From: Lophium mytilinum | Lineage: Eukaryota | NCBI GenBank assembly: GCA_010093605.1 | Contig: MU004192.1 | Span: 194,882 to 258,881 of the forward strand | Direction: 5' to 3' | Length of the DNA: 64,000 bases | Shown here: positions 7,841 to 42,889 of the stretch, one piece after another | How positions within the stretch are numbered: the stretch's first letter is position 1 | Layout: each line of letters begins with the position of its first letter | Notes under the pieces: model-generated | What the model saw: the letters and a program-made list of their open reading frames with translations, nothing else | What the model was told of the DNA's origin: nothing | The model's database searches: none | Made by a program: the position numbers and the translations under genes

Positions 7841-7845
7841 TAACC

Positions 7846-14000: not shown

Positions 14001-15234
14001 GAAAGAAGGTATTATTAGTAGAATTATAATTAGGGTATTTATCTATATATAAATTATTAGGTTATCCTGCTAATACTAATATATTCTATTAGACTTAAGC
14101 TTTAAAATAGGTAATTCGCGTTAAGGCCTATTAGTATTTAGCTTCTAGGTTATTAAGCTAAAGGGTTTAGGCCTAAAAGTTGGCGTACTTTTTATTATAT
14201 AGGCGGCGTACGCAAGCTAACTCTATTTATTTAGACTTAAGTTTATAGTTAAGGGTGCAGACTTAGGTCTAAAGTTTAGTAAGTTTACTATTAGTAAGTA
14301 AATACTTCTTATTTAGCTCTTTAATAGTAGTGTTGGCAGCGTCTTATTCTTATATAGTAATATTTATTTTATACTTATAATTATTACTATCTTAGTAAGC
14401 TATTATAATGCGGTTCTACTACTATTCTAGTATAAGTTAAATGTCTTTAATAAGATTCTATAGAACTTATAGTTTATATTACTAGTAAACGCCTTCTCTA
14501 TAGCGCATCTTAAAGATAGAGCTATTTATATACTAGGTAATTATAAGATATAATTATTAATAATCCTCTACGCGTATTATAGTCTAGTGTCTATTACTCT
14601 ATTCTATGCCCGCTACTTACTAGGCTAGGTTAGAAGTATCTAATCTAGTAATAGATTTAACGCGGGTAGATTAGTATTATAATAGAGATATATTAGGTAA
14701 GGGGATACTATAAATAGATAGTATTCTTAGATACTTAGAGTTACAGGACTAATATACTTTAGAAATAGTATTATAGTACGCTATAGCTTTAGAAGTATTA
14801 ATAGTAACACCTTAATATACTATCTTAAGCTTATTTACTTTATTATCTTTATTATTACTAAACTAATATTTCTCCTCTTAATAGTCTTATTTATTGGCTA
14901 AGTTAAAGTTAGAGGAGAAGCTATTATTATAGGTAGTAGTTATATTATTAAGGCCGGTAGTTATATTATTAAGTCTATTAGATAAATTAAAGTTGCCTAA
15001 TATATAGCTACTAACGCGGGAGAGCATTAGGAATTTCTAAATTAAGAAACGCGCGGAGAATACTAGTTACTTACGTGACCTTCTAGAAGACTACGCATTT
15101 TGCCGCTCCGCGGGCTTTACGCTACTCTATAAAAGTTTGCCTACTTCTTGCGCAAAATTTGCGCGCAGGCTGCGCAGACAATTTTTAATTATAGATAATC
15201 TAGCATTATGGGCAATTATTACAGTCAATAACTA

Positions 15235-18200
15235 CTTTATAGTCCTTATAAATGTAGCTATCCACCTCCTCTATCTAACCTTCTAAAACTGCCTAATCCG
15301 CCTGGGTTGCAGATAGATAGATAACAACGTAGATGGGGCCTTATACACTAAATACATAATTATCGCGTGCAGTAGAAAATTTAAAGTTGCACTAGTATAT
15401 CTAGTTGTCCCTTCTTACTACCTCCGCTAGGGCTTTATAGTCTACGGCAACTTTGCATGTATTATAGACTTTACGCGTTGCGTAGATAGTAATGCCTGTA
15501 TATATTTCTAAGGATTGCGTAACTATTACTAACCTTAATAATTTTAATATCCTAGTAGACTATTAGAGCTAGCAACGCGTGCGCTAGACGTCCGGGCTAG
15601 GGAATAGCACGCGACATGCATGTTGCGCGTTAGATAGTAGACTATATAGTAATTTAGGACGCATCTAATTACGGTATATATATTGCAAAATAGAAAGATA
15701 ACGCTAAGCATAAGATAGAGCCTACTTACACCCTATTTACTAATTCCATGCTACTATTCCTTATCCCTAATACTCTTAAGCAACTCAACAACTAGCCGCA
15801 GGCTTTCTTCTCTAGAATCCTGTGCCTTAACGCAGGCAGCTATAAACTTTTAATATTAGTCCTTATTAGATACAATTATAGTATTATTTTTATACCAGCC
15901 GCATTTATCTTTCTTTATATAGAACTGCTGCCTAAATTACGCAAATAAGAGATTAAGAGGGCACCGCTTCTAGCAGTCCTTTATTTTAATACTCTCCTTG
16001 GCCTCCCTATAAATTAGAGCTAAGCGGTATAAGTTATTATCAGTAAGGGGCTCTATATTATTAATCTTGTTATTCTATAGTTAATATAATTAGTATATTA
16101 TGCTTTAGCTCTCTACCTTATGCAATTACCTACACTGTCCACAATATCTAATAAAGTGTCCCTAAGGGGGGGGCTAGATAGAATTAAACGCGGTAAGGAC
16201 GAGTACCTAGAGTTAAATAGTTGTACTTCACTCTTAATGCGCTTTATTAGCGCACGTGTCTTCTCGCGTCAGTTAATAAGGTTCCGCTGCCGATCCCGCT
16301 CCTTTGCTTCCATTCTCGCCACCCTCGCGGTAAAGGCCTATTATTGTTCCAGTGTCATATCTTTAGTTAAATTTAATGCGTTGTGGCGGTTAGAGTCATT
16401 ATATATATCCTTGTTGTCGTCTTCTTTATAGTTTATATGCCAACCTACCCGTTTTATAATAAATTCTTGCCAGTAGGATAATAGTTAGTGCTTGCGGCGT
16501 AAGCTAAGTGCCCGCCATTAGGCGAGACATTTATTATAATTTACTACCCTAGCTTATAGTTAGCATAGTCTTGTATAAGGGGGGCGGTAGTTAATACTAG
16601 TAGCGGCGACCCCGTAAATTAGGTTTATGCGCTTCTGGCCCGAGGTATATTCGCTAATGGCGTGGTAGAGGCAAGTACACACATATGTAATAGTATCGCC
16701 TAAGAGGGGGTTAAAAAACTCTTTTAAGTATCTTTATATCCCTAAGGCGTTTATAGACCGTCCTGTAAAGAGTAGGTCTGTAACTACTACCTAGATGGCC
16801 TTAGCTATAAAGATTACTGGTGGCCCCTATAATCTATTAGAATGCTGTCTAACGCTAGGTTAGTAACTAACCTTAGCTTAGTCTTTATCTGCCCTGAAGA
16901 GATAGTTCCAATCCTTTATTAGCGTTAACGCGGTGCCGGCAATATCTAGAGTTATAGAACCGAAACTATAGTATTCTCGCACAATATTATAAGCAACCTT
17001 TATTGCAGTATTACAGAAATAACTAAAAGCGTTATAAATCTAGGTTATATATTATAATTAGCCATTATATAAGGTTATAGGAGTGGGGAGAGAGTAACGC
17101 ACCTTCCGCGCGCAAAAAGGGTCTAGAGTAGTAGGGACGTTAGCTTAAGCATAGAATAGTTAGTCTTTATAGACGTCTGCCTATATTTATATTAGCACTT
17201 GCTAAAATATATCTAGCCTAACACTCTTAGTCTAGGCTATAAGGTTGTTGCCGTATTCTCTAATTACGTTGGTGCCTAACACTATGCTTCTAAGTATCTA
17301 GTATCTTATTTATTCTTCTACTGCCGTGTATTTTACCTCTATAGTTAGTGCTTTAGCATGCCTATCTACGCCATCCCATATCTAAATTATTTTACTGCGT
17401 TATTTTATGCTAAGGAAGCTAATGCGGTTATAGACGGGTGTGCCTCTACCCGTGCCTAAGAAGCGGCTAGTAGAAGAGAAGGATGGTAGACCGCTTAACG
17501 CAAAGGTATTAGACCCAGTTATTTAGTTAACGGCCCTGCGGGCTTCTATCCTAGCCGCTATCTTATCTTGGACCACGGCGGCACCCTAATAGGTATTTAT
17601 TAGTATACACTGCTTAGTAGAGTGGCCGTAATATATATATAAGCTAATCTTACGCTTAAAGTCTATTTACACGCAGAAGTTAGTATTACTAGATTAGGAG
17701 ATAGGCGCGTGCCTGTCCTCGTCCTCTATACCGCGTTTTCTCTTTCCGGCAAGAGATAAGGTGCGGCTAGACGGCCGAGATAATATGGCATTACTATCTT
17801 AGAATGTCCTAGTAGTGCATCCTCTTTTACTTATTAAGTTCTATATATTTGTTATTAGTCGGCAGGCGTTAGAGTTAAGGAAGCTAGGCGCGTTACCGTG
17901 TCGATTAGTTTTAAGGCAGCGCGTTTTTACTTCTTCGCCATCTATAGTTATACGCGTTAGCTGTATATATATTAACGTATACTATAGATAGGGTATATAG
18001 TATAGCACATTTAAGTTATATAGTAAGTCCCTATTTAGGGCAGAGAGAGATAGTCCTATATTACCTTTTACTATGTTTAAGTAGGTAACATTAAGCCTTA
18101 CTAAACAATAGATAGGGGGCGTGTGGTAAAAGAACGTTCTATTTCTTAAGGCAGAGTGCGAGAATAATAACCATAAAGGGAAGTAAAGCAGATTATAATT
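15235..18200 (-). pseudogene. Cargo gene relic, multi-exon, with DUF6532-like domain
   Basis: Reads IFIAKAI*VVVTDLLFTG...EFFNPLLGDTITYVCTCLYHAISEYTSGQ (core at ~16,638-16,686), resembling the DUF6532 pattern AlvctAi..aL.Ew.tG. Several GT..CTAAC..AG-type introns. Ends approximate. Confidence 0.6.
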
Positions 18201-18499
18201 AAGCAGCGTAGAGAGAAGGGAATAAAGGGGGAGCAAGTTGCGCGTTTATTATAACAGGATGTAATAGAGCTAGCCGGATGCGGTCCACATGCGTTAACTC
18301 GGCGTCTTTAGCCAGTTATATACCTCTTCTCTATCCCCCCCTTAATAAAGCCCTATTATCCTATATAATTAAACACTTCTATCTACGCAATTACCTCTCC
18401 TATTATATTGCCTTAGACTAGAGCTTGCACTTGCGCACTTGCGTTGACTTCCACTAATCGCCGCACGCGCGCTGCCACCTCCCGCTATTATTCCTGGAT

Positions 18500-19220
18500 A
18501 GCATCTCCTACGCTGTTAGAATAGTGGTTAGTTAAGAGATTGTGGACTTCGCGTTCTACATTATTAGATAGATGGCTGGCCAAGTTAGAGGCCCTAATAG
18601 AGGTATTAATATTATAACGCGCAGCCGTCCCCTTATCGCTAACTTTATCCCCGGTTAGGCAACCTACTCGGGCGCAAATAACCCGCTAGCTATCTCCTCC
18701 AGCTATAGTATATGTCCCTCTTCTACATTATTAATAATAAACGCCTCTGCCTTCGCCAACTAAATCGCGCAACCTTAAGCTATTGCATCCTCCTCTCTCT
18801 CGGCCTAAAACACCCTCTTTACTACTATTCGGGCCTTCTTTCTACAATTCCAGCCCTCTATTAGTCGCTACGCTGTAAGCAGTTATACACTATATTGCAG
18901 GGTACTCCTCTATAGTAAAGAGGTCCCTAGATAGAAGAATAGAAGGGCAGTCTGCTAGCAGCGAATTCCCCCCCCGTGGGATCTATATACCTGGTTAGGA
19001 CGTTTAGCCGTATAGCTACACTTCTAGTTCTAATAATAGCTATAGTTTAGACAACTCTATACCGCCTATATATAGGGATATTAAGCTATCTATATTCTAG
19101 TCTAGTAAGACAGTATAAGGTTATAATAAGGCCCCGCCTCGGGGTAGTATAGTCCTAGTCTAGTTCCCTCGGCAAGGCGGGCTGTAGAATAGTCTAATCG
19201 CAAATTAGGTTGGCTAGGTA
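18500..19220 (+). pseudogene. Cargo gene relic, Pro/Ser-rich hypothetical protein
   Basis: Frame is open apart from RIP-type stops. Short GTAAGC...TGCAG intron at ~18,875-18,900. No domain recognised. Confidence 0.4.
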
Positions 19221-19389: not shown

Positions 19390-20215
19390 AGGATAGCACA
19401 GTACTAGCTAGGGTAGATAGGTGCGGGGGTGTCGTCTATCTATATTAGCTATATTAATTAAAATCGTCGCATATATCTAATATACTATTTAGCTAAGGCT
19501 TAATAATTAGAGTAATATAGTCCGGTTCTCTTAATAAACTCTAATGCACTATTACTATATGCCAGTCTACCTTATTCTTAACTAGGAACTTAAGATTATC
19601 TATAATATAGTAATATATAGTTTCGCGTCCTATATTAAGACTAAATATTATATTTAACCTAGTAACAAGCATACTAAATTTAGGGGCCGGCATTACTAGC
19701 ACACTCTTTAGCAGCGTGGGTGGTGCAAGTTTATATACTAGTATAATGCGGGCGGCCTTACTACCTAGCCGCTTTACTAATATTAACTTTATTCCTATAT
19801 GCGCTGAACTGCGGTAGTATTTAGGGTGCGGCGAAGTTCTATTTTATTCGGCAGGCGGAGTGTCCATAGAATCGGAATAACAAGACGCGTTAATGTAATC
19901 TCGTCTTTTCTTATTATAGTTGCATCGCTGTGCGAGTTTTAACATCCACTTGTATCCTTCTTTAAGTGGAACGCGCAAAAGCATCTTAGGGAACTTCTTT
20001 ATAATATCTATTATTATAGATTATACTATCCCCCTAATTATCTTTAAGTAGAGGAATCCGCCTAGCAGGTCTACTAACTTTATCTTAGTCTCTATTACGG
20101 TATATAGCGTATTATATTCGCGGGCGCTAATATTAAGGCCCTGCATAAGCTTATTCCTAGAGTCCAGCTTAAGGTTATTAGGCATTAGGGACTAGCCTTG
20201 TTCGTCTAACAACAT
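19390..20215 (-). pseudogene. Cargo gene relic, hypothetical protein
   Basis: ATG at 20,215: MLLDEQG*SLMPNNLKLDSRNKLMQGLNIS...KWMLKLAQRCNYNKKRR. Long frame broken mainly by CAA/CAG-derived stops. Confidence 0.55.
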
Positions 20216-20669
20216 AATAGTTTAACAATTCTCGGGGTGCAGAAGGGGTAGAAAAGGCAAAGTTGGAGTTAGTTTATGTACGTGTTCGGACGATAGAGTA
20301 CCGAGACTAGACTCTTATTGCGTCTGCGTAACCAAATTAGCTACTTTAGCGGTAACTATTTTACAGTAATTAATAGAATACCTATACTGCCTCTTCTCTT
20401 AAGAAGAAACTAAAGCCCCTTCGCATTAACAGCAACCTAGCATTTATTAAGTTGTTGGTGTAAGATCTAGATAGTTTAGTATTGGGCTAAAAATTCTATA
20501 TTTTATGCTGCTGCCTAATATATTTATGCATTTAAGTGTTAGAGATAATTGTAAATAATGCTCTATTATTAACTATTACTATGTAACGGCCCGGTTTATT
20601 TATCTAAATGTATGCTTAGGCGGTGCTCCCTTTTTTATAATTATTAACGTTATTATAGGGCGCCGTTAT

Positions 20670-21530
20670 AATGCTTTAGGGCTTTAGCTAATTATATATA
20701 GTGTAGGAATACTAATATTATAAGAGTATAGGCCTACACGCCTATTTTAGGATACTCTTATTTAATTTATATAATAGCTAGGACTAGGGATATATACTTT
20801 CTCTAGCAACTTAGATATATTAAGAAGCGTAATAAATATAATAGTGTTTTAGAGTATTTTCTAAATTAAGTAGAAAGGTTACAAATAGATAGCGTCTAAA
20901 TTAGCTATAGAGTGGCATGTGAACGTATTATACTATCTTAAAACTAACCTAACTTGTCTCTACATCTAATTAGCCGTGGTGTTGGTAGTATATTAAAATA
21001 TAGGTAGCTAGAAAGGGCTTAGCATTAGTAAGTGTATACTTTTCTACCTGTTTTCTTTTAGCTAGTATGTATATACGGCACTAAATCGTACTACTACAGG
21101 CCTATAGTATACTCTAATTTATAGGCTACTCTATTTAAATCTCTTTATTAGGAATATAAGTAAGATTAGACGCATACTAGCTACTAACATCCTGCGGTCC
21201 AGATTAGAAGGGTAGGATAGAGGGTTCTTGCGACCTTTCTATGCCTTATAACGTGCGAGAATATTACTAACAACACATGCGGGCCTACGGAGCATCAGCG
21301 CCGCTATATAGATATTTACCCATATAATGCTATAGTTTATATCGCTAATACTTAGGCCTTAAATTGCATTTAAGGCTCGCACTGCTAATACCTAAGCCTT
21401 GCAGCAAGTATATAGTTAAGTAGATTATATTAATATTAAAAACGGACAGTCTACAGCAGACCTACTATAGATATAGTATACTTATTAACGCGGCGATTAC
21501 AGGTGTATTATAGAAGTAGAAGTTAGAATA
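20670..21530 (+). pseudogene. Possible cargo gene relic, hypothetical
   Basis: GTAAGT...TTTAG intron at ~21,028-21,061 with coding-like frames on both sides. Heavily interrupted. Confidence 0.3.
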
Positions 21531-21599: not shown

Positions 21600-24500
21600 T
21601 ACTAATAGTTCCTTAGTTTTCCTTCTTTTTTAGTACACTTCGCATAACCTTATACGTAAACTTATTATTATTAACCGCACGGGACTAAGCTAGCGCATCT
21701 GCTGGGTTGTTACCCCCTATATAGGCGAGAATAATGCCGCATGTTCCGTTGGACCTCTAGTTCTTCCGCCACACTCTAGATATAATCTATACCTTAAGGC
21801 TAGATGCAGTCTATGGCTCTATAACTATCACGCACGTGCATTAAAAAGCAAAGTTGGAGCCTTCTACTCCTCTAGTCTTCCGGTTCGCAACTAGAATATT
21901 AACGGCCGCTGGATCATCTTAATTACGCTTAAAGCCGGTATTAAATTGCTCCCGTTACTTAACTATTAGCAATAAATGTAACCATGCGAGCTTTTTAGTT
22001 AGCATAGTCTTTATAATTATCTAGTATTAATTATATTAGTTTATTAGATAATAATCGCCAATTATAGATAGAGATGGGTAGCAACTTATAATGCAGATAA
22101 CTAAATTAACTATAGGCTCCTCGCCGACAATTAGTATCTTCTTCTTCTTAGCTTAAATGTGTCGAACTATGCTCCTAATCTTCTTTAGCTTCCCCGAATT
22201 GGCTAGTAGGTTAGTGTACTGTTTAGTGAGGGTACTCTTAGAGTCTATATAATCTATCTAGCCCGCATTTTTAATGTCTTCTAGAGTAAAGGTTGGGTTA
22301 CTTATTAAGCTAAGCTCTTCCTATCGCGTTTTTAACTTAGCCAGCCCAGGAATTAATACAAAAATCCAGGGCAGCCTCCCCTTGCCCGAGCCCGTTAGGA
22401 AGGCGCCCAGGCTAAAGAAAGGCGGCGGCTTATTAATTGCCGCTCTATACCTTAGCTATTCTTTATACTCTTCTTTAAGGTCTATATATCTCTCTCTAAT
22501 AACCGTGCAGTACTCCTTAATAAAGGGTTTAAAGTAGTTAGGTGTACTAACTATTACCTGCTATATAATATAGAGCGGCATATCCCCTAAGAGAAGGCTA
22601 TCTAGGCTAAGGCTTATTAGCATTCTGCGGATGCTTATAGCTATAATTACATCTAACACTCTCTAGAGACGCCCAGACAATTTAGAATTATTCTATAGTT
22701 ACCGCTCTTTCTCTATTTTTAAGGCAAGGTAGTAACCTCTAGCCCCTATAAGGTCTTCTTAATTAACACGCCGGAGGGTAGGGCCTTAATAAAGAACGTT
22801 AAACTTATCCCCTTTATCTATATCCTCTTCCTCTAACTCCTTATCTAGAAGAGTATTATCCGGGTCGTCTTTAACATCGGCGTCTAAGTTAGTTAGGTCC
22901 GCCGTCTAAGTTGGCGTCTATAAACCTCCGTATAGCATAACTATTAGATATAATAGAGTTTTAGGGCCGCGGAGAAAAGGAGTCCCGCTATAGAATAAGC
23001 CTCCGGGGCAACTGTACGGATCAGCAGCCTTATTAAACCCTTCTAAGTTCCAGCCCCAATAAACCCAATTAAGCGCACGGTTAATATTCGCCCATTTGCG
23101 CGTAGTTAGGCGGAATGCATGCCGACACTATATAGACTTAATATAGCTAAAAGCCGTAATATATAGAGACGTATTATTAAATCCTAGGTGGAACTTGTTA
23201 AAAAAAACGGCCCCACATATATATATAGGGGTTACTTTATCGCCATGCAATAGGTTATAGAATATTATAAAGGTCTCTAGCGAGTTTAAATTCTTATTAT
23301 ATTTTTTATTAAAGGTCTCCGCGCTTATAATAATAAGATAGGTTTTCGCTCTTAGATTTAGCTTATACCACACCCGACCGTTTATTTCTTAGTGGATAGG
23401 CCTAAGGTTCTTCTAGTCTTTAGAAGTAAGGTTACCCTCCGCAATACTTCTATATACACGCCGGATGTAAAGTCTTTCGCCGGGGACCTTAAAATCCTTA
23501 TTCTTGCATTTAACATCCAGCCAGTATTTTGCCTCCTTATAGGTCTAATTTAGCAGACTCTTCTTAGTAAGCTAAATAACGCAGCCTTCAACGCTGCTAG
23601 AACGCGGAGCATTAGTGCTAGCCTCTCTAGCATAAGTAGCGAATGCTATTAATATTTGCAGAGTTTTTCCTATCCTAGGGGGGTCTATAAGAATTAGCCC
23701 ACGCGCCCTGCCGGCGAGACCTTAGATAATGCTGTATGTCCCGGCTACCTAGTATAGGGCCGCACATATCTTTAGGTTAGTAGTTATTCCTAGCAGCTTA
23801 AAGGTTGCGTTACTAGAAAAATTTCTATATATTAGAGGCAAACTAAAAAACTATAGCACCTTCTTAAACGCTGCCACTAAGATATTCTTTATAGAGCTTA
23901 ATGTCAGGGCTATCGCAGCAGTAATATTAACAGCATCTACCTTCTCCGCGTTAGCCGTAATTATCTTGTTTACGTCTATAGAGGGTCTAGTCTCGCTAAG
24001 ACTATATATATTAAATTTAAGCGTGGCCGCGACATTAATGCTGCTAATTGCTATATCCCCCGCGACTTAGGTATTGCTGGGGATAGTCTAGCCGCTCTCT
24101 ATAGCGACCGCAAGCGCATAGAGTTGTTTTTAGGCAGTTAGGTACTAAGTAGTCCTAGGCCTAAGCGCCCTAAGCTACTATATAACCTTATTATAGACAA
24201 CACTAGGCTAAATAGGATCGCGCATTAACTTAGCATATAGCTAGATAATGTCGAGCATCTATTAGAGTAGTCGCGCTTTCTTCTCTATTTATAGCTTCTG
24301 TGCCTTCTTCTCTACTAGTAGTTTCTACTTTCTTTATTCCTCTTGCTCCACCGCCTCTTCTAGCTGTTCCTGCCTCTTTACTTTCTCTTTAGTCGCGGTC
24401 TCGGCCAGCTCTCTCTCCTTCTATTCTGTCTGCTTCTTAGCCTTCTCCACTATCGCTGTATCTACTAGCTCTCTCTCCTTTATCTCTTTCTCCTTTATTT

Positions 24501-26007
24501 CTTTCTCCTTCCTTTCTTTCTCTACTTTCGCTGTTTCTGCCAGCGCTTTCTCTGCCAGCGCTTTCTCCGCCAGCTCTTTCTCCACCAACTCTTTCTCCTT
24601 CTTCTCTTTCTCTTTCTTTTCTCTCTCTGCTTTCGCTGTATCTGCCAGCTATTTCCACTTCTCCCCTTTATCCTGCTCCGCGGTGGAATTAACTCTATCT
24701 ACATCGGCCACATGTACGTATAGACTTATAGTTAAGTTAATAATTATTTTATCTAGAGCGTTGGCGGCGGTGGGTTTAGGTAGACCCTTAGCCGCGGCAG
24801 CCTTAGGCTTACTATAGCGGGGGCGTTTCTTAGCCGGGCGGATACTAGGGGGCGAGGACTTAAGAAAGTGCGGACCTAGCTATGCATTAGTTAGTGGTAA
24901 TGTTTAATAATCAACAATAATTAACGTACGTCTAGTCTTAAGTTTAGACATCGCCTCCCTAATATTAAGGCCCTTTACTGTAAAACTAAGCACTATCTCT
25001 TTAGGTATACTCTTTATTTCCTCTAATAGCGTAGTTAGATGGAAGTTGTTCTCTATTAACTCCCAGGTTCCATTAACTACAACAACGTGCTCTAGAGGGT
25101 TGAAGTCTGCGAAAGTTCCGTTAATGGCTTCTAGAAACTTTGCAAAGCTATAGTCTTCCGGCTCTAGGCCTTTGCCGCTAGACCTTACAAGACGGAGAGT
25201 AAAAAGGCGTCCAGTGCTTTCCCGCTGCGGCAGCTAGTATATTATAGCGAGGACCGCGTGCAACAGCCGGGGCTTAAATAGGGTATTTTAGGCAGCGACA
25301 TCTAGGGATTTTATTAGAGAGCTAAGGCCTGCTAATGCAACCAACTTCGCGGATAAGGCCGACTTAGACCGCTTCCGCTTCTTATTACTTTTAATAATAC
25401 TGCCCCGTATCTTATATTTCTTATAGACTTTATACTAGATTAATATCTAATACGCTCGCTTCTACTTAGCTAATATAGAAGACTTCTTAAATATGCAACT
25501 CTATATATCTATAAAAAGTGTATATATTTTAGACTAAGCATCTAAGTAGGCGTTATTCTTACTATAGTTATTTTAGCCTAGTTGCAAGAGACGTTTTACC
25601 TGTAGGTACGCTTCGGAGTTCTCTATTAGCATAAATAAGTTAGCTTCTATCCAGCGCTACACCTTAGAAGCTAGACCCAAGCCGGCCATAATATTTATTT
25701 AACTTAAGTAGCCTTTAGGGTTCTTAGTAAAATTAGATGCCGCCTTGCTCTGCATAGTTGTGTTGCGTAGCAGGTCTACTAGGGGTGTTACAGCCTTCCC
25801 CCAAGCAGGTCTAGAGCGTTGGCAGCTGCTGCGGGGAGGCCGGCGGCTGCGGCGGTTATCTAGCTTATCTAGCTCTGAATTGCTATTATAGTCTACTTAA
25901 CTAGAGTCTATGCTTAACGACTATTTATCTAGGTTAAACTCCTTGTTATTTTAATCGTCGGGGAGGCGTTGTTGGCGACTAGTGCGTTGACCCGATCCTT
26001 TAGCCAT
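21600..26007 (-). pseudogene. Cargo SNF2-family (SWI2/SNF2) ATPase/helicase relic with long N-terminal extension and E/R/K-rich linker
   Basis: Motifs in order: LY*VAG, GLILIDPPRIGKTLQ (Walker A, 23,656-23,700), VFFNKFH (=DEFH, ~23,188-23,208), YSGTPF (~22,975-22,992), SIRR, SGKLKKI, KKILIVGE, ILVANRKTRGVEGSNF (~21,850-21,900), *IISRVWRKN* (=QxxxRxxRxxQ, 21,757-21,789). ATG at 26,007. Introns near 24,880-24,930 and ~22,020-22,090. Confidence 0.88.
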
Positions 26008-26749
26008 GTCGGGCGAACGAGATAAGGAGTTAGGGTGTAAGGAAGGCAGATAGGAGGGGGCAGGGTTAGTAGATGGAATGGCGTTGTGCGGCGATGCGGG
26101 CGAGGGCGGGCGGGAGGCTAATAATATTAGATAAACAGCGATAGTAAGTAATAAGTAAGGTAGTTACTTACCTGCAAAGTTATAATAGTAGACGCCACTC
26201 GCAGTGCAATTAACCTTGGGATCGCGCGCGTTAAAAAATAAGGTAACCGTAGTAGAAGATGTATAAATCCGCGCGCGCTAGTAATAGGAGCAGCTACTCT
26301 TAGTTGTACTTTTAAATAGGTACAACGTCTATTAAAGAAGTACTTATAGAGCGGTACTAGAAATACAGCAAGCGCAGGTAAGCCTAAGGCGTAGAGAAGA
26401 AAGTTAGCGTATAAGGAAGGGAGGAGAAGAAGGAGAGAGAGAGGGAAGAAAGAGATGGAGGAGGAGGAGGATGAGGGAGGGAAGATAGGTAAGAATAGTA
26501 GATAAGAATCAGAATTAAAAGGCCGGACAGAAGGTAAAGTTTAAAGTGGCGCACGATTAAGTGCGTAATTAGTAAACGGGCCGTGTTATAATATAATAGA
26601 AGTAAAGAGTTATATAGCTTAAAAAACTCCACCACCCGATAATTAGTAATAATTGGCCTCTACCTTAATATTTATCTACACCTATTAGCTTTTAGTAACG
26701 CTCAACAGATTAGCAATAACTTCTACCTAATATTGCCTTCTACTTGCCC

Positions 26750-29700
26750 AGGTTGGTTAATATAGGGAGGAAGGCCAATTTCTATATATAGGTGCCCCCC
26801 CCTATTATTTAAGTTGGCGTTGTAAGCTCTACTAGATTAGCGGCTAATAGGTTAAGGTCCTTAGAATAGAAAGAGAAGTTAGCCGCAGCTACCTAAGGAG
26901 GTACTGTGCTGCTTATTATCGCCCGAGCTGCTGCGCGCCTCTCTACCTCTAATAGCAGCTCATTGTCTACTAAAGTTGCGCCCTATAAGCTAGCAGGTAG
27001 CAGTACTAATTTATACGTCTTCTTACTATCTGCCCTTCTTATAAGTATTGCTAATTTAGCTTATACTACGGGATAGCTTACTTATCTACTCCCTCCCTTG
27101 CTAAACAAGCACCCTCGCCCTTTAGCCCCTCTGCTAGCGCGCACACCGCCTCTATATAGAGAACGCCTACTTTAACCTGCCCGGGAAGACTAGCGTTACC
27201 CACCCACGTATTCACTATACTCCTCATCCGCTCGCTCGCCCCCGCCGGCGCTAGGCTAACCGTAGTCCGCATTTAACTAGCCTGCATATCTCTCTCTCTT
27301 AAGGCCCTCCGCTGCTCCAGGCGGCGCTTCCTAGAGGCTCTACTTAGTAGTTCCCGCTCTCTCTCTATCTCTCGCAGCTCGCGCTCTAACAACCAGGTTA
27401 GCGCGCTCCTCCTCGCGGATTTAGCCTTCCTAGAAGTAGTAGGATTGCGCAGTTATATCTTATAGGCCACGCCTCTAGAATATATATAGATTAGCAACGC
27501 TTAGGTTTACCTATTGCAGTATGCTATAAGGCTAACCCTTAAGTATAGCTTAAAATTAGCAGAGGCAGGTTAGAAGCGGATAAGAAAGATAATAGGGCGA
27601 TACTTAGATATTTAGGGGACCAATTAACTGCTATATAGTACCTGCATCCTACTAGGTAATTTAGCCATTAGATGCGCGTTTAGATAAAAGCCTCTTAACG
27701 TAACTAACATCTTACCAGACGCAATAGTACTTAGTCCTAATCTAATTATTAGCCCGACGTTATACTAGCCTTAACTCTAACCCTCTAGAAGGCAGCTGCT
27801 GCTATAGCAACTTACGCCTTCTATAATAATAGCTAATATACCACCGGCGCATATTAGACTAAAGCCCCAAACTCTTCTAATAACCTACTCGCTATTAAAT
27901 TACGGCCTCTCCTCTAACCCTAACTATTTTGTTCGGAATATAAGCGTATCCACCTATACTAACACCAACTAACTATTTAAATATGTTGGGCCTAACAGCG
28001 ATATATAGTCTAGAATAGCAAAGGCCAATACACTTTAGATAGAGACCGAGCAGTAAGTCCAGCTTATGCGCGGTAGTACCTAGACTTAATAGACTAATCT
28101 ATATATAGAGAGGTTGCTGCTAAGCCCTTCTTCTAACTCTACTCTAAGGGCGCCGACTAATTCTTTAATCTTCTATATAGTATACGCGAAATCTTAGTTA
28201 TAAGGGATAAATTAAATAAACCACAGGGAGCGGAACTTAAGAAGATACTCGCTACTTAAAAGACTATAATATAGTCTACTAATAGGTCTAAGTCTATAGT
28301 AACCTTTAAAGAGAAATATAGCAACCTCTAAAAGCGCTAGAGACATACTAAATACTAACTTAATTCTATAGCAAATATCCTAATCTTAGAAGGCTAAATA
28401 GGGGCGATAGACGCCCACGCCCTTACTATCGTTCTGACAACTATGCCTAATGCCACCCGTGCGGTAAAGCTTGCTAAGGCGCTATAAGACCGAGAGCTAC
28501 TAAAGTAAGTTGCAATTAAGTGCCAATTTAGGATCTCTACTTAGATGCGCCCTGGCCTACCTACTAATATACCGGGTGCATAATAGTGCACTTGCTCTTA
28601 TTATTTTAATCTAGACACGCGTAAACTATAAAAGGTGGCCTCTATAAATAAGCCTAAGTACCGCTGCGACCTTACTATTAAGGGCACCCTTAAGGTCCTT
28701 AAAATCCTAGAAGAACACCTACCGCCCTTATTTAGAGGCCAGATAATTAGGTGCAATACTAACGCGACCGCTAGCAAAGAGCTGGCGGAGGTCCCTATCT
28801 TCCTCGCTGTTATTCCAACCCAACCGGCCACCCCCGCTAAGCTAGTAGAACCCCGCAAGAGGTTAATATAGAACGCCGTTTACTATGTAAGGGTCTAAGA
28901 CGAGCACAAGTCTTATATTAGTCTGCCTCGGGATCCACGTTCTAAATAGCGTATACCTATTATCTCGCACATAATCTATAGAGGATTAGCTAATGGAAGT
29001 CCAGCCTTATAAATATAGCTTATATTTATAGTTCTAGTGTTTAGATTACTATATACTAATAAGCTATACTAGATTGCATTCTACAGCCAAGCGGACTCTC
29101 TACTTAACACTATCTGCACCGATAAGAAGTTTAAGGCTATAATAACAGACAGTTTCGCCCGGATGCACCTAGTTATATCTGCGCTAGATACTCTAGAGAA
29201 GTTAGCGTCTACAGAAGTATAAGCCGGAGAATTTTACAGCCTTAAGTAGCCCCTAAACCTACCGTAAACTACACCCCCGCTCCTAGAGTTATAGAAGGCT
29301 AAACTTCTTACCTAAACTAACCTGCCATTTATTAGAATTGCAGAGCACCTACTAGTGCCCCGGCGTAACTACTATACCTACTCTTCTATTAATACTCTAA
29401 GCAAGTATATAGACCTAGATTATATTCTCTATTTTAAGATTACCACTCCTAATATAGAGGAGCAAAGTCTAGATAATAAGCGCCGGCATACTACTTAGAC
29501 GGTACATAAAAACATCGCCCGGCGTACTATACTAGTTAACTTATTATAGAAACGGGTTAACGCCTAGACTTATAAGGAGTTTTATAAGGTATTATATAAT
29601 GCAGCTGCTAAAATACTCGCAGTGTTACCTATAACGCTAAATATAGTAAATATAATAAATAATATAGTAGAGGGCTTTATAGACGCAACTAAGTCCCTTC

Positions 29701-30615
29701 GCATATATCTAGATTAGCACCGGGTTCTAATAATAGAGGATTATACACCGCTGGAGGAACTATACGCTATTAACATTTCCCACTAAGGCCGCTCTAACCA
29801 GTTCCTATCCCCGTTTAAGTTGGCACGGGTTGCGGTTAAGCGAGTTTACGACTTTAAGATAACTGGCAGACCGGGAGGGCATAGTAAATACAACATTAAG
29901 AATATTCTTAGGTACTACGCTAAGGTACTAAATGAGTTTAAGGCTGGCCGGGCCAAGGCTAGCAATAGTGCGGAGGGGGATAAATGGGACGCCGCTAAAG
30001 TCTACTATATTAACAGTCTAACCTTCTATATAGACCGCTACACGGCTAGAGGTTTTACTACATTTATCTAAGAACTAATTGCTAACAGCACTATTAACTA
30101 TTGCAAAGTAAGCAGCTATCTAGTGGTTAGCTATTACTACTCCGCCTTTAGCTATAATGGAAGCAATAACTTCTACTCCAAGTGCAATACTAGCAAAGAT
30201 AATAACACTAACCGAGACGGTACCTATACGCTACACTCGGGCGACGATAAATTAATACGCCGGTGGCCAACTATCTTAGATTGCATCCACGAGGCTATTC
30301 TAGACCTTAAGGACTGCGCTGGGCTCCTTAACAGAGATAGCAATAGTGGCAACAACTTAAACGCGCAAGATAATTGCGGACTATAGAATCCGCGCAAAGA
30401 TAAGCTTAGCTAGAGAATGCAGGACTATATAGCTAAAGCGTCGGCTAAAATATAGTAAGTAGTAGAGGGCTACTACAATTAGGAATAATCGACGATAATT
30501 AAAAACAATTAGACATCCTGCGGGCGGCCCGGGTAGACTGTAGTATAAGAGTTGCTGCTAGCACTAGTTATAGGCGCCGGCGACTCGGACGGGAGGCAGC
30601 ATCCCCGCCACTAAT
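26750..30615 (+). pseudogene. Large cargo gene relic (>1,000 codons), unknown function
   Basis: Continuous coding-like frames that join ORF-track pieces 28,635-28,871, 29,820-30,071 and 30,123-30,386. Interrupted by RIP-type stops and short introns (~27,656-27,718; ~29,031-29,072). Start approximate. Confidence 0.6.
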
Positions 30616-31749: not shown

Positions 31750-34700
31750 CATACTAGCCCATAATCTAATATAATCTGCAATAATCGCTCGCAATCTATA
31801 AGTTTCTACGTGGGGCCAACTAAATTTAACTAGAAATAGGGTATATACCTTCTACTAAATATAGACACTGCTATAAGTTGTTCTAAATACTTAGCGCCCT
31901 AAATAAATATATACCGTGCTGCAAAAAGCTCCTTAAGATGCTGCAGCGGGTCCCGCTCGCTAATACTAGGACTACTAGATCCGTAATCTAGTCTTGCATG
32001 CTCCGCGTTATTTAGATAATAGACGGGATATTATTTAGAACGCCTAGATTGCCACTAGTAAGTCTACCCCTACCAGCCAACCCCTATAATAAGATAGAGT
32101 ACAAGATAAATAGAATAGAGCTATATATCTCCAGTAAACTAGAAGAGTACTAGAGTCCGCCTTCTATAAATAGAGGCCCTATAAGCTTAATATACAATAA
32201 CCCGCCGGAGGCTGCTAAATTCTGCGTTCCGCACTAATAAGGCCGACTAATAATATCGTCCACATTATTGCTATAAGAGGAAGTATATCCCTCTACTAAA
32301 TTAGGCATGCCCGCAGGGGCGTCTATTAGACAGGCCGATGCTAGATAGTAGACGTAAGTATTATTAGGGACCGCTATCCCCCCCGCCCGTAAAGGCGGCA
32401 TTAGAGCTTACTAACCGGTTGCTCTATTATAGGGACTAATCCCCCTTCTATCTATTCTAATCGGCGTTTAACCATGCTTTTATATTATAGCTTTAGTAGA
32501 TTGGCTGCACTAAGAATAATATTAACCTGCTGTTTAATAACATCCACCTTAAGAGCACGTTTTCTAACTCCCTTATGTTTACATCGGGCGATTTATAGAA
32601 CAGTAAACTAGAGGAAATTAGATACGGCGTTAGCAATACTAACTATATAGTGGAGATGCTGCATTTCCCAAGTAAAAAATAAAGCTTAAGCGGAGAGTAG
32701 CATCCGGTGTACTACTTTAATATAATAGTAGCTATATTATTCCTAATTAGATACCGCCCTTTCTATAATTACCTTATATTTATACTAGTTTAAGTCTATA
32801 ATATAGAAGGCCGGCAGGTATATACTAAGTTGCATACATTAGACTAGTAGTAGTAGACTTAGTTAAAGCTCCCAGCGGGGGCCACGGTAATACCTATCTT
32901 GCTCTCCGCGGACGAGATATAGCTTACCTAATATCGCGGCGACAAGAGCGCATAGCCAGTCTATCTAACTATTAGCAACCTAGATAGGACCACGCGGCGC
33001 TTAAACACGTTGCCTGGCACCCTACTACTAGGCTTTATACTAAGCACGGCGGATAAAGGAGACTACCTAAAGCATTAGCTGTACTATAGCTCTTTAGGCT
33101 ACATTCTTAGGCATTAGTAAAATTCTTGCCAATACTAAGCGGTTTTCTAATATAAAATAAGCTATTATAGAACATACTACTAATAGAATTATACTAGAAT
33201 GCAGGGATAGTAAGAATTAAAGGTGCTATCCAGTATTATGCGGAATTATAGCTAATTATAAAGAATAGAGCCTACTTATAGGTATTAAATTTAGAAAACA
33301 CTGCACTATATACTAGGTACCATCACATTAACGCGAAGACCTAGAGACTAAACACGCCGTAAGGTCTTACCGCTTAACTATTATTTAGATTAAATAGCAA
33401 CGCAACAACGAAGAGCGTTTAAAACTTCTGCTAAATAAAGCGCTGCGCAACGTAGAGGCTATAGAGCTTAATATAGAGTTATACGTACATTCTATAAATA
33501 ACTTTACCTAGAAATACCCCTATACCAACATCCACTAAATAATAATAATAGATATCCTATACTAACTATTTACGGGCGTCGTTCACGACCTTATTAAATG
33601 GGTCTAGCTACTAGTGGCGGAGGTCTGCACCCCAGCAATTAGAAGAAAAGATGCCCGTGTCCTAATAGAAAACGAGAGCGGCTTAACCTAGCTAGACGAG
33701 CGATTTAAGGACGTGCCGCCTTTCCCGGGTCTATCTACATTTAATAAGAAGAATTTTAGCAAACTCTTGTAGTATACTAGCTCTAAATAAAAGTCTATAG
33801 CCCGCCAGCTTATAGTAGTAGTAGCACCGCTGCTAGAAGTAAAGGCACTAAACGCGCTCCGGTTTGTCCGTGCAATACTTAATTTTACTATTCTAGCGCA
33901 GTACAAGATATATAACGAGGCCACGCTAGAGTATATAGAGCTGGCGATAGCTTAAATTAATATATATAAGTTAGAATTTAGGACATTTAGACCTAGGGAT
34001 AAGGATAGAAACTACGCCTTCTACTACCCGAAATTCTACATTATGCAGCACTACGTTGATTTTATACAGAAATTCGGCGCCATTAATAGCTATAACACCG
34101 GCTTAAATAGCAAAGCAAAACACCAACACCTAGTTAAATCACAGTATTAGTTAATAAACTATAAGAACTTTCTACCCTAGATCTGCCAATTAAACTAGAG
34201 ACTTATAAACGACCAGGCCATAAACAATATACTAAACTACCAACATTACTATCCTTAACTAGTAGCGATAAGAGACATGCTAATGCGATAGATAACAGTA
34301 TTAGAAAGTATTAATATCTTAAACTTTAAATGGCCTGGATACAATAATTTCTATAAAGGCCGAATAGTGCACCATCTAAAAGTAAGCGTTAAGTACATAG
34401 CTAATATAAGCCGGGAGCCAGACTTTATAGCCGCCGCCGCCGTGTTTATTTAAGAAGAGAGGCGCAAAATCCAAGGCTAATATACTAAGCCTAGCAGCCT
34501 AGATATATTAGACCCTAATCTATTCTAGGTTAGCCACCTCTAGCTTAAGTTCCACGCTAGTATTTCGTGTTGGAAGCGATTAGGTGCTAGCGAGGACCTA
34601 GAAAGCCTTATAAAAGAAAATCTATAGTGCAACCCTAAGTAGTAGAACTAAGAATAGTAACGCAACTATCTATAGGTGCAAGAGTATAGCTTAGACTATA

Positions 34701-35329
34701 CTAAAAACGGGAAGACGCGCGTTAGTATTGCTAACAGGAGGTTAGTAGGGTAGCTACAATTTATAGTAACTATTATAGACCCTATTCTAAAGGGTAAAGA
34801 TACTCTATAGGCGGCACACTCTAGAGTTTTTATTCGCCTTCTAGCGCCAATTAATAATGGGAAGCTACATTACGTCCATGGCCTGGTGGAGGTAGCTTCT
34901 TAGGCTTCTAACAACAGCCGCCGCTAATAAAAGCTAGGAGCATATTAATTCTATCTACTGCCATAAGTCCTCTAAAGTGCACACGTTATACCAGCTACCT
35001 CTAGCCTAGACCCCACCCGTTTTTTTATTAATAACTATATTAACTGGGATTAATATAATACACTCTATACAGAAGACTGGAAGATAGAGGCGCAAGAGGC
35101 AATGAGGTAGTACCGGCTTAGCGGTCGCGCTAAAGAGATTAAAGCTGCCCTAAGAGTTAAAGACGCAGCGGAGATTTTAGTAAAGCGCGTAAGGGCAAGA
35201 GCACTTACTAACGCCTCTCTCCCGCAACTAAGCCGGTAAACACCAAGAAGCAGCACAGTAAAGAGGGGCCATGGCACCGGCAAGTAACAGCGTAGGTAGG
35301 AATAAGGCCGCAAGGAAAGACGTCCTTAA
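31750..35329 (+). pseudogene. Plavaka-family (CACTA/EnSpm-like) transposase relic with N-terminal C2H2-like finger
   Basis: VYTKLHTLD****T*LKLPAGATVIPILLSADEI*LT*YRGDKSA*PVYLTISNL (~32,818-32,982, =DWWWxTQ..LP.GAT..P....D.TQL...G...AWPVYLTIGN). CYPVLCGIIANYKE* (=ADYxEQ, ~33,225-33,268). DILY*LFTGVV (=DxLHQ, ~33,551). LDERFKDVPPFPGL. PKFYIMQHYVDFIQKFGAINSYNTG...KH (~34,028-34,125). SAHVIP...FFINNYINW near the C-terminus. Confidence 0.93.
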
Positions 35330-39240: not shown

Positions 39241-40072
39241 GAACTATGCAAGTCTACCTATATATACTCCCTATATGCCTTCTATACCCTCGCGCTACTA
39301 CTAAGTTAACTTTTAATAGATATGCAGCATGCATATATACCTTATGTCTTAGAGCCTATCCCCGCCCTAAGCTCTAACTTAGAAACTGCTTATCTGCCCA
39401 CTTCTAATATAAACCCCCTAAACTGCACGCGCTTAAAAACACTACTAGTCTTGCGACACCCATTTAGAGATGTTCTATAGTTGCGATATCTAGCGCGTTA
39501 AGCTATAATACAAGGGATTAAACCTAAGGCCAATTAAGAATAACTATTAGTAATAATAGCGCACTACCGTAAAGACGCACTTATATAAGATTCTAATAGT
39601 GCACTTAAGGGAAAAGTATGCAGCAACCGTTGGTTAAAACACGTGCGCCTAAGCCTTAAATTTCTAGCGCCTGCCCGTACACGTAACAGGACTGTTCTCC
39701 TCTATTCTGCGGGTATAAAAGCCTGCCCCGTATCTCTTTCTCTATGCCACGGAGTAGTAGGAGGTGGCAAGAGTTAAAAAGGTAGAAGAGTTATAGTAGA
39801 GATTAACTTAAGGCTAACTATTTAGAATATAGCGGGTGTTAAAATCGCGTACACTAATAAATTATAGTAGGGGCTAAAGCTAGCAGAAACTTGTCTAAGA
39901 CTCTAGAAAATAGAGAATAAGAGGCAGTGCGCGGGTATAGCTTACTAATAGTGTCTACTATAATAGAAAGCTAATAGCGCACTAATATCTAGGTTAGTAG
40001 TTAGACTAGCACGGTTCTGCAAAGCTATATTAGGCAAAGGTAATATACTCTAGCATCGCCGGCTTATATTAC

Positions 40073-40205
40073 CTACTAAGCTTCTCTATTCCTTCCGCTC
40101 TACTCTATAAGCTTTTTTATCTACTAGGTTTCTCTATCCCTTCCGCTCTACTCTATAGAATTTTTTTTCCACTAAGTTTCTCTATCCCTCCCGCTCTACT
40201 CTATG
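40073..40205. repeat. Tandem repeat, 3 x 48 bp
   Basis: Units start at 40,073, 40,121 and 40,169 (CTACTAAG.TTCTCTAT.CCTTCCGCTCTACTCTAT). Confidence 0.9.
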
Positions 40206-42889
40206 TAATAGCGCCTTAGTTCTAGTGCGATCTTTTATATGCACAGCTCTTAATCTTCCTAACTACTGCACGCGACTATATATCTACATTTTCCACCGGC
40301 TTTTAACCCCACCCCAACTACTACTTCTCTAGCCCTACTTTCCTTAGAAAATAAGCGGGCGGATAGAATATATACTCTATCGCCGGCGCCGGATACGCTT
40401 TAATCTAGTGTTACGGGGATAACCTAGCCCTTATATGCGCTAGTAATAGACGACTATCTACTATATAACAACGCGGTAGAGAGAGGGAAAATAAAGCTAC
40501 TTCTACTCTAATATCTCTAACTCTCCTTATAGCACTGCGTAAGATTATCTAGAATTATATAAGATTATCTATAATTATTATAGCGTGCCCCCCACATTCT
40601 TATATTCTAAAAGAGACTCTAGCCTATTTCTTTAAGTATATTTTAGGTTCCGTAACTGCCCCGCTAGATAGAGAGTATATATTCTTATTGCCTTCTAGCG
40701 CATAAGTATACTATAGGCTGGGTTGCAAAACAACAGTATTCTAACTCTTAAGGTTAGAAGTGTAATGGGAGAGACTATAAACGGAGGAGCGGCGACCTAA
40801 AATATAGGTAGAAGAAGTAAAGCGTACTAATATAGAGGGAAACAAGAGATATAGAAGAAGTAAATAGAAAGAAGGGGCTATAGAGGCGGTAGCGTTATAG
40901 CTATAATGCTAGAGGCTATTCTATAATATAGATATAAGAGACTACTGCTGGAGCTTATATTAGCAGTAGAATAGTTATATACTTTTTATTATTTGCGGAT
41001 AGTTATACACCGCAGCCCAACTCTTAAATAATAGGTCTTAGTAGCGACGTAGTAAGAGTCTACCTAAGAATATATTAAGTATCCTAATCGTAATTTGCAA
41101 GCCGGACCTAGCGCTAAATTATAGAATAGATAGATTATATCTTTTCCACCTATCCTCTATGCATCCGTTAAATCCACTTTTTAACTGCTACGGCCCTAAC
41201 TTTGCCGTACTAACTGTTTATGGGATGAAGATTAGACGTCCTAGCCTAAGTACTTACTATCCCTGCTTACTTCCACCCCCGCCTTGCACTGCTATAGAGA
41301 GGGAAGAGCGGCGAATAGAATTATTTTATAGCAGGACGTGGGCGGCATTATATACGGGGCACGTGTGTATTAGCTCTAGCACCGCTAAGGCTAATTAGGC
41401 AAAAGACACTATGGAACTAAATTATCAATAGTTTAAAATAATAGATAATAATTAAGTATTATTAGGCTGCGTAGTATATAGGTAAACTACTACTAGTCTA
41501 CGCAGTAATATTACCTGCGCTGGTAGTTTACGCAGACGTTGCGTAATTTGCGCGGTTTGCCGGAAGTTTGCGCCGTTCGCTGCCGAGCACTAACAGCCCT
41601 AACTTTTGCAGTTTCGGGTTTTCCTAATAAGTAGTAGTATAGTTTCCTCTACCGTAGTTACTACTAGAGAAGCTAAAGTAGCTAGTAGAGGTTTACCTAT
41701 AGTTCTAAACTTAGTCTAATAATATTATAGCTTAGCGGGTATAACTAGAGGGACTAGTCTAATAGATAGAGCTAGTTAAGAGGTAGTAGCTAATATCTAT
41801 AACTGGAATTAAGTTGCGCCTTAGAAGGGTAGGTTTATAGCCCTAATAAAATAAGGCTATAGACTATAATTAATCTATATTATATTATTATTATTATCTT
41901 TTATAAGAAGGTATTATAGGTTTAAGGCACCTTTTTAATATAATATAATACTAATACAGCGGGGGTTAATAGAAATACTATTAGCGTTACTAAATAGGCG
42001 TTTAGGGCATCTACCTAAGATAGAGTTACTAAACTATAGAGCTTTAGCGCGGTTAAAAGTATAGTAGTTAGGGTTAGCTATATAAGAAGATAGAAAAAGT
42101 TAGTATAGAAGAAAGAAAACTTAAAGAGGTAAGGTATTAAATTTATATATAAGGGCCTATTAAATTTAGATTATTTACTATATACGCCGGGTGCCTAGAA
42201 GGTTTAAGAGGGTAGTGCTAGTAGCACTAGTTACGCCTAGTTGCGGGACTACCTAGGGGGTTATAGTAAATAATAAGTTTAGTATTTATAAGGCGCGGGT
42301 AGTATATAGAAAATAAGTAGTATATAGAAAATAGGTAGTATATAGAAAATAGATAGTATATAGGTACTTATTCTATAATACTAGATATATACTTAGCTTA
42401 CTATTATTAATACTAAGCTTTCCGGGCGTTAGTCTCTATATAGTAATAGTAATTAATTAGTAATACTAGGCGCGCGCGCACTGTTATCTATACTAAGCTT
42501 TCCGGGCGTTAGTCTTTATTTAATAATAGTAATAGATAGAAGAAGAAGTTATAGAGCTGTTAAAGTAATTAATAAGAATTAGTAAGGACTTTCTAGGGTG
42601 CTACTACTACCCCTCTATTATAGGGGCTTATTGCGGAGCGTTTACTATAGTTATAAGATCTATTATCTAGCTTTACGCATAATAGCTAAATCGCTTTATT
42701 AGGGGCCTACGGCGCTACTAATAGAATACTATATTAGTATAGTCTTTATTAGGGGTCTATAACTCTACTAATAGTTACTATATAGAAAGGTATAGGTATT
42801 CTATAGCTTATTATAAGAGCGCACTCTATTATAGAAAATTTCTAGGGGTGCTTCTATTACTTCTAGAAGCTAGAAGGGTATTTATCTTA

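Follow-up and report, generated by a model that had tools for sequence, protein, structure and literature searches.

A probable 26.6-kb PlavakaB-type DNA transposon, inactivated by repeat-induced point mutation, within a Ty3/Gypsy retroelement of Lophium mytilinum

We analysed a 64,000-nt stretch of Lophium mytilinum DNA (assembly GCA_010093605.1, contig MU004192.1, positions 194,882 to 258,881), called the window here; all coordinates refer to it. The host most likely belongs to the Mytilinidiales, within the Dothideomycetes. The window contains an inserted segment of 26,605 bp (15025-41629), which is likely to be a very large cut-and-paste DNA transposon of the PlavakaB type, present as one dead copy, inserted as a unit in a Ty3/Gypsy element and mutated throughout by repeat-induced point mutation (RIP). 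It is not a new class of element; it is a very large, dead Plavaka in a host class without a Plavaka report in the literature searched.

Results

Boundaries, termini and target site of the element

The window is made up of three compartments: an extremely AT-rich block in two parts (1-15 kb and 41.6-45 kb, GC 0.21-0.33), the segment between them (15-41.6 kb, GC 0.33-0.45) and gene-like DNA (45-64 kb, GC 0.46-0.59). The segment and its terminal features are as follows.

15025..41629, plus strand (orientation based on the transposase): whole relic of the putative PlavakaB-type DNA transposon (termini, duplication, change points, RIP indices, six-frame Pfam)
15023..15024, no strand: target-site duplication AG, left copy (read directly)
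41630..41631, no strand: target-site duplication AG, right copy (read directly)
15025..15033, plus strand: 5' terminal inverted repeat CATTAGGAA, equal to CATCAGGAA after one CpA>TpA change (sequence and 9-mer scan)
41621..41629, minus strand: 3' terminal inverted repeat, reverse complement TATTAGGAAAACCCG (sequence and 9-mer scan)
15090..15180, no strand: left subterminal cluster of TTTRCGC and YTRCGYAG motifs (motif count)
41467..41575, no strand: right subterminal cluster of the same motifs (motif count)

The first letters of the segment are CATTAGGAA and the last are TTCCTAATA; longer reads of the two ends are CATTAGGAATTTC from 15025 and GGTTTTCCTAATA finishing at 41629. The 5' end thus begins with CATTA and the 3' end closes with TAATA (TATTA on the reverse complement), and the inverted terminus extends over 9 nt, provided that C and T are counted as one letter at position 1. 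AG lies directly outside both ends. Two of the three matches of the 9-mer YATYAGGAA in the window are inverted and fall inside the support intervals of independently computed composition change points. On the left, the GC change point was placed at 15007 (14985-15052) and that of CA/TG density at 15076 (14983-15149); on the right, the CA/TG density change point was placed at 41610 (41608-41650). The element ends lie within three of the four change-point intervals. The third YATYAGGAA match, at 21146, was considered as another left end and rejected: AG does not flank it, and neither a subterminal cluster nor a step in composition accompanies it.

Both subterminal motifs are concentrated at the ends of the element. 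TTTRCGC was found 6 times in the two terminal 300-nt stretches vs. 10 times in the 26-kb interior, and YTRCGYAG 7 vs. 9 times, an enrichment of about 26-34 fold. Subterminal repeats of this kind are typical of CACTA-like elements. An original prediction, made from the same DNA, had proposed a 26,605-bp segment with inverted termini and a 2-bp duplication; the AG flanks and the position of the ends relative to the change points bear this out, and both its coordinates and its Plavaka family call are right.

The Plavaka transposase

We scanned 14.5-43.8 kb with Pfam in all six frames, treating stops as X; RIP damage reduces the sensitivity of such scans. Plavaka and DUF6532 were the only families found inside the element, and these scans revealed no other transposase, reverse transcriptase, integrase or recombinase family. 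The Plavaka profile PF18759 matched the plus strand in two frames with 55.9 and 46.5 bits (cut-off 26.3), profile positions 33-217 at 32668-33183 (E 5.2e-15) and 193-325 at 33158-33604 (E 3.9e-12). The relic consists of two parts.

32602..33111, plus strand: transposase relic, end of exon 1, matched part (PF18759; tblastn with open reading frame (ORF) o1 of contig L001, 38.5% identity, E 2.5e-25)
33161..35107, plus strand: transposase relic, exon 2, single frame without frameshift (PF18759; tblastn with protein P0001, E 7e-51, and with L001 ORF o2, E 1.7e-58)

The gene probably starts near 31.9 kb. There are 12 in-frame stops in the 170 codons of the exon 1 part and 39 in the 649 codons of exon 2, and all 51 are TAA or TAG. 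The read-through of 33158-35032 matched one database protein among 7,782 candidates (P0001, 616 aa, PF18759, 26% identity, E 1.8e-57). In the reverse direction, tblastn of P0001 against the window gave a single match (33248-35089), which stays in one frame and is damaged by in-frame stops only. The original prediction of one Plavaka transposase is confirmed by this single match and by the two PF18759 scores.

The protein encoded by L001, a metagenome contig, is 88% identical to P0001, and this intact relative and the relic have a two-ORF layout in common. The intact relative has the same ORF break, so the interruption of the relic at 33.11-33.16 kb is due to a short conserved intron rather than to damage. 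Several genes of the element had been predicted to contain introns; this one, in the transposase, is the only intron supported. The P0001 motif HCTICEVP reads HCTIY*VP in the relic, which could be a C(2)C site that has undergone a single transition-type change. In L001, a repeat of about 110 nt occurs twice just downstream of the transposase stop (4350-4769); the contig is too short to contain ends.

The host Ty3/Gypsy element

The DNA on both sides of the segment belongs to a minus-strand retroelement of the Ty3/Gypsy type, and a 202-bp pair of long terminal repeats (LTRs) brackets the insert.

42890..43091, minus strand: 5' LTR of the host Ty3/Gypsy element (repeat-pair comparison)
7846..8047, minus strand: 3' LTR of the host Ty3/Gypsy element (repeat-pair comparison)
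8915..11539, minus strand: host pol relic (Pfam on the translation with stops as X)
11144-11539, minus strand: RVT_1 (Pfam E 1.1e-11)
10541-10915, minus strand: RNase H, RT_RNaseH(_2) (Pfam E 1.8e-14)
8915-9094, minus strand: SH3_Tf2-1 (Pfam E 4e-5, under the curated cut-off)

Along their 202 bp, the two LTRs agree at 91% of positions; the 18 differences consist entirely of transitions, and the LTRs become identical once recoded as purine/pyrimidine. Together with RVT_1, RNase H and the integrase-side SH3_Tf2-1 in this order, the LTR pair identifies the host as Ty3/Gypsy, with a length of 8.6 kb after subtraction of the insert. The insertion site lies 1,260 nt inward of the 5' LTR and 3.5 kb upstream of the reverse transcriptase, a position where gag is expected. 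Neither the rve nor the gag profile was detected in the host element (Pfam, stops as X). Of the predicted location in the gag ORF of a Gypsy element, the Gypsy host therefore stands, while gag is not confirmed, no gag family having been found on either side. The further proposal that the segment moved as one unit into another transposable element is supported by the ends, the AG duplication and the LTR pair that brackets the insert.

The host LTRs have TA..TA ends, the form that RIP would make of TG..CA. A clean 5-bp duplication was not found around the host element (TAACC at 7841-7845 vs. ACCTT at 43092-43096); a 4-bp duplication, AACC, emerges only when one LTR end is shifted by 1 base. Upstream of the host element there is a second, more diverged Ty3/Gypsy pol relic (2842-4403, minus strand), which is 62.5% identical to the host pol along 1,627 nt and, as protein, 36% identical along 516 aa (E 7.5e-44). 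The AT-rich block is therefore a nest comprising the Plavaka insert and two or more retroelements, this relic and the host Gypsy among them.

RIP pattern and unity of the insert

RIP indices fall into three levels that correspond to the three GC compartments. The ratio (CpA+TpG)/(ApC+GpT) was lowest in the retroelement DNA on both flanks (0.03-0.27), intermediate in the 1-kb intervals of the element (0.43-0.78) and highest at 45-64 kb (0.87-1.29). TpA/ApT was 1.53-2.1 in the 1-kb intervals of the element, 1.5-2.05 in the flanking retroelement DNA and 0.41-1.01 at 45-64 kb. The RIP index showed no trend with distance from the element ends (rho 0.03, p 0.90, 26 intervals) and no steps inside the element. 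No long internal repeat pairs (LTR-like or terminal-inverted-repeat-like) were found in the element, even in purine/pyrimidine code. The original prediction had named, as an outcome that would speak against it, cargo derived from unrelated nested elements; there is no second mobile-element protein and there are no internal repeat pairs.

RIP acts on duplicated DNA. Its even level over 26.6 kb, at up to 13 kb from the flanks, suggests that the whole unit was formerly present in at least two copies. TGA is nearly absent from the six frames of the element (46 TGA, 2,300 TAA and 2,176 TAG in 53,206 codons). RIP in the element is nearly saturated in the TGA/TCA context, and about half of the CA/TG dinucleotides survive. 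The host Gypsy is far more heavily RIP-mutated than the insert, which fits a younger insertion or fewer rounds of RIP.

Other content of the element

Stop-poor frames were evaluated as maximum-scoring segments against 200 codon shuffles, with the 95th percentile as threshold. The following candidate frames were obtained besides the transposase.

16116-18245, minus strand: stop-poor frame holding DUF6532, 710 codons, 32 stops, just below the shuffle threshold
16626..17045, minus strand: relic of a DUF6532 domain (Pfam PF20149, 33.3 bits, cut-off 24, E 5.8e-8)
19544..20398, minus strand: putative gene relic with no match to a named family, 285 codons, 5 stops, passes the shuffle test
21616..26007, minus strand: long frame, candidate ATG at 26007, 1,464 codons, 60 TAA/TAG stops, no frameshift
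22039-26328, minus strand: stop-poor frame, 1,430 codons, 52 stops, passes; its antisense frame passes too
25932-26540, minus strand: stop-poor frame, 203 codons, 2 stops, just below the threshold
28632..30383, plus strand: putative gene relic with no match to a named family, 584 codons, 17 stops, passes the shuffle test

The strongest stop-poor segment was 22039-26328 (score 27 vs. 9.5 at the 95th percentile). As in the transposase, every stop of the long frame (60 of 60) is TAA or TAG. The DUF6532 relic had been predicted and is borne out by PF20149; a Pfam search of the 71 stop-free ORFs of at least 55 aa likewise returned a DUF6532 fragment only. No Pfam family was found in any of 28 candidate frames at E<=0.2, and 28632-30383 and 19544-20398 had no match in PDB. 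TET/JBP, DNA methylase, SET, ParB and 2OG oxygenase were not detected in the six-frame scans or in the 28 frames (E<=0.2), although a heavily mutated copy could escape. Taken together, the DUF6532 relic and the stop-poor frames support the view that the unit holds more than a transposase.

The long frame contains an E/K-rich stretch at 24.4-24.65 kb, encoded by a tandem array (24399-24649) with periods of 15, 30 and 105 nt. A second tandem repeat of the element (48-nt unit, 2.8 copies, 40069-40204) lies near its right end. The long frame also shows collinear look-alikes of P-loop and helicase motifs (GKT, 'SGTP' and 'GVEGSNF..VIVIEP'). It had been proposed as a relic of SNF2, an identity that is unproven after six negative tests. 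A word-indexed protein search gave no match among 7,999 candidates, phmmer gave none among 1.84 billion representatives, PDB returned antibody noise only, and Pfam was negative. Compared by BLASTP with the Mit1-like SNF2 protein that the window encodes, the long frame gave a best E of 0.45-0.65, at motif I, and in a RIP-aware alignment to SNF2 the observed score was reached by 10-15 of 200 shuffles. An earlier RIP-aware scoring, with the best ancestral residue, gave no discrimination for SNF2. The collinear motif look-alikes are all that is left of this identity.

The predicted content of about ten gene relics was not confirmed either: besides the transposase and DUF6532, three frames pass the shuffle test and two are near the threshold. 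Nor do the supported relics alternate in orientation, as had been stated; those on the left (16-26.5 kb) are on the minus strand and those on the right (28.6-35.1 kb) on the plus strand.

Neighbouring host DNA

At 44.9-45.1 kb, RIP-saturated DNA gives way very sharply to unmutated gene DNA, the index rising from 0.24 to 1.28 over about 1 kb, and the first host gene follows directly behind this border. Three intact genes were identified.

46007-48676, minus strand: MOV10-like AAA_11/AAA_12 helicase (domain search)
54156-59078, minus strand: Mit1-like chromatin remodeler with zf-PHD-like, Chromo_MIT1, SNF2-rel_dom, Helicase_C and zf-CCCH_6 (domain search)
59938-62335, plus strand: SpoU-type RNA methyltransferase in two exons (domain search)

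The helicase matches an NCBI protein of Lophium mytilinum with 100% identity and is 86% identical to a Mytilinidion resinicola protein. The presence of two silencing-related genes beside a RIP-mutated nest of transposable elements may be a coincidence. At the right end of the window (63079-63920), several copies of a diverged direct repeat of about 290 nt, 68% identical, are present in otherwise unmutated DNA.

Discussion

Family assignment and comparison with known systems

The Plavaka family is said to have been originally described by Iyer et al. 2014. PlavakaB belongs to the CMCT clade (PMC12730594), which is related to CACTA/EnSpm and Transib/RAG1. According to PMC12730594, PlavakaB has termini 5'-CATCA..TGATG-3' and 2- or 3-bp duplications, while PlavakaA has TGT..ACA and 2 bp. 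Among the first 19 of the 71 places in its supplement, PlavakaB 5' ends read CATCAG.AAAAC.. (e.g. CATCAGCAAAAC, CATCACGAAAAC and CATCAGTAAAACC), and Plavaka consensus lengths are mostly about 7-13 kb, with one of about 24.4 kb, the TET-positive PlavakaB-1_GyCo of Gymnopus confluens (PMC12730594). In the present element, CATCA..TGATG is recovered only on a RIP-tolerant reading, in which CpA>TpA transitions, the dominant change at the locus, account for every departure from CATCAG. The AG duplication has one of the two PlavakaB lengths and the transposase matches PF18759. These features support a PlavakaB-type, CACTA/EnSpm-related DDE element, a putative label that is taken from the termini, the duplication and PF18759.

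The present element resembles PlavakaB, and PlavakaB-1_GyCo in particular, in PF18759, CATCA-type termini (here with RIP transitions), 2-bp duplication, size and extra coding capacity (PMC12730594). PlavakaB-1_GyCo has an Agaricomycete host, whereas the present host is probably a Dothideomycete, and the present copy is RIP-dead, with no TET/JBP gene detected. Its 26.6 kb exceed every length given in the first 19 of the 71 supplement places (PMC12730594). One third of a red-algal genome is taken up by "giant Plavaka DNA transposons", which measure 17.4-19.1 kb and have three accessory genes (bioRxiv 10.1101/2025.02.11.637652). The present element shares with these Bostrychia elements (PAG1-3, about 20 kb) the Plavaka DDE transposase and several accessory genes or candidates for them. 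In the algae, PAG2 combines DNA methylase and SET, and PAG3 combines ParB and 2OG oxygenase; by contrast, none of the PAG domains (DNA methylase PF01555, SET, ParB/2OG oxygenase) was detected in the present element, which lacks this cassette. The red algae are also hosts of another kingdom, with a third of the genome occupied, while the window holds a single degraded copy. The original prediction had suggested a different class of giant fungal element, a view that does not hold, since a 24.4-kb PlavakaB and red-algal giant Plavaka of 17.4-19.1 kb were already published.

Within the Pezizomycotina, Plavaka elements with 2-bp duplications have been described from Tuber (PMC12581995). They are like the present element in host subphylum and duplication length, but the Tuber terminus is CATAC, as opposed to the CATCA type found here. 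Among the 20 papers with the word Plavaka in the literature searched, a general survey (PMC5751038) is the only one that also contains the word Dothideomycetes, and in a transposable-element study of the same fungal order (PMC12910237) the words CACTA, CMC and EnSpm are absent.

CACTA/EnSpm elements of plants and the fungal EnSpm are similar in their short inverted termini starting with CA, their subterminal repeat clusters and their related DDE transposase. They have CACTA or CAC..GTG termini and a 3-bp duplication (PMC12730594), in contrast to the CATCA-type ends, the 2-bp duplication and the Plavaka profile of the present element. The termini here are of the CATYA type, and the flanking 3-mers (GAG vs. 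AGT) differ, only 2 bp being repeated. Starships, which reach about 700 kb (PMC12134995), far more than the present element, are likewise large multi-gene elements of Pezizomycotina. The present element has an internal DDE transposase, and no tyrosine-recombinase captain of Starships (DUF3435) was found at E<=0.01-0.05 in the six-frame scans, whose sensitivity RIP lowers. ToxhAT is hAT-bounded and differs from the present element in superfamily, ends and duplication length. With 14 kb and ToxA as cargo, it is a Dothideomycete precedent for a non-Starship cargo carrier of more than 10 kb (PMC12506042).

Alternative explanations

Several observations weigh against a single large Plavaka element. 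All the evidence comes from one copy in one 64-kb window, the inverted terminal repeat is short (9 nt), and the three YATYAGGAA matches compare with 3.56 expected, so the terminal word by itself is about as frequent as chance predicts. The right GC change point was placed at 41844 (41674-41869), about 200 nt beyond the element end. The upstream Gypsy relic aligns with the host only over pol and so does not bear on the insertion point, where the two parts of the host element are presumed to join. Leakage of RIP from the repeated flanks is, formally, an alternative to duplication of the unit. Regarding the content, the stop-poverty test is weak, as the proven transposase fails it and sense is indistinguishable from antisense, and the lack of in-frame TGA had to be rejected as a mark of ORFs, TGA accounting for 46 of 4,522 stops over the six frames. 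The chance frequency of the terminal word and the single known copy would also suit a scenario with no mobile unit at all, in which RIP-damaged ordinary DNA lies between unrelated retroelement fragments and the inverted ends and AG arose by chance. This scenario is extremely improbable: the flanking fragments share an LTR pair and join into one 8.6-kb element, the ends lie at change points and match a published family-specific terminus, a transposase of the same family lies inside, and the subterminal motifs are clustered at both ends.

The outer ends could also be those of a Plavaka of about 8-13 kb that grew to its present size when other mobile elements, no longer recognisable, inserted into it or when neighbouring host DNA was captured in a single event, in which case the cargo would be no stable feature of the family. 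Such a composite would agree with the 7-13 kb of most published Plavaka consensus sequences (PMC12730594), with the absence of a supported frame at 26.5-28.6 kb and 35.1-41.6 kb, and with the fact that all 28 candidate frames lack a Pfam family. We consider it unlikely, given the uniform RIP level without internal steps, the lack of direct or inverted repeat pairs of the kind left by nested elements, also after purine/pyrimidine recoding, and the absence of a reverse transcriptase, an integrase or a second transposase; moreover, the existence of a 24.4-kb PlavakaB consensus means that size alone needs no nesting (PMC12730594). A different question is whether the extra frames belong to the family itself as accessory genes, e.g. 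for chromatin or anti-silencing functions like TET/JBP of basidiomycete Plavaka or the red-algal PAG1-3, and not host cargo in the style of Starships. Accessory genes are the rule in the large Plavaka described (PMC12730594; bioRxiv 10.1101/2025.02.11.637652), the frames here are single long exons that are packed together and RIP-mutated along with the transposase, and DUF6532 and Plavaka are listed together among the extra domains of some Ganoderma genomes, a co-listing that implies no linkage (PMC8955403). However, no match to a TET/JBP, SET, DNA-methylase or ParB family turned up in any frame, and the search of 1.84 billion representatives gave no relative of the long frame. We find this origin of the frames quite plausible, though on balance somewhat doubtful.

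Under the explanation that we favour, a PlavakaB-type element inserted as a unit, a Plavaka-family DDE transposase from a two-exon gene at about 31.9-35.1 kb would have bound the subterminal TTTGCGC-type repeats and cut at the CATCA..TGATG ends. The whole 26.6-kb unit would then have entered the 5' part of a resident Ty3/Gypsy element, with duplication of AG. It may have carried a gene for a DUF6532 protein, another of about 1,460 codons whose product had a coiled-coil stretch and motifs resembling a P-loop, and two or more additional open frames. At least two copies of the whole 26.6 kb would have been present during at least one sexual cycle, and RIP would subsequently have struck the whole unit evenly, converting Gln and Trp codons into TAA and TAG without frameshifts.

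Implications

The present value of the finding is modest, as it concerns a single dead copy whose passengers cannot be named from one RIP-mutated sequence. It does provide a clean case of RIP evenly killing a large element by nonsense mutations with no frameshifts, and the contrast in RIP between the host Gypsy and the far less mutated insert offers a way to date and order nested insertions. If further copies exist, Plavaka would be extended to the Dothideomycetes and its top size would rise from 24.4 to 26.6 kb (among the first 19 of the 71 supplement places of PMC12730594). They would also establish a DDE-driven multi-gene carrier in a subphylum where large gene-carrying elements are discussed almost solely as Starships. 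More speculatively, and with rather little confidence, we suggest that filamentous ascomycetes other than truffles hold a Plavaka lineage that routinely carries at least 20 kb and at least five passenger or accessory genes, including a large P-loop/coiled-coil protein without detectable relatives. If this were true, there would be a second route for the movement of gene blocks in Pezizomycotina, independent of Starships, and the RIP-killed copy described here would be its first trace.

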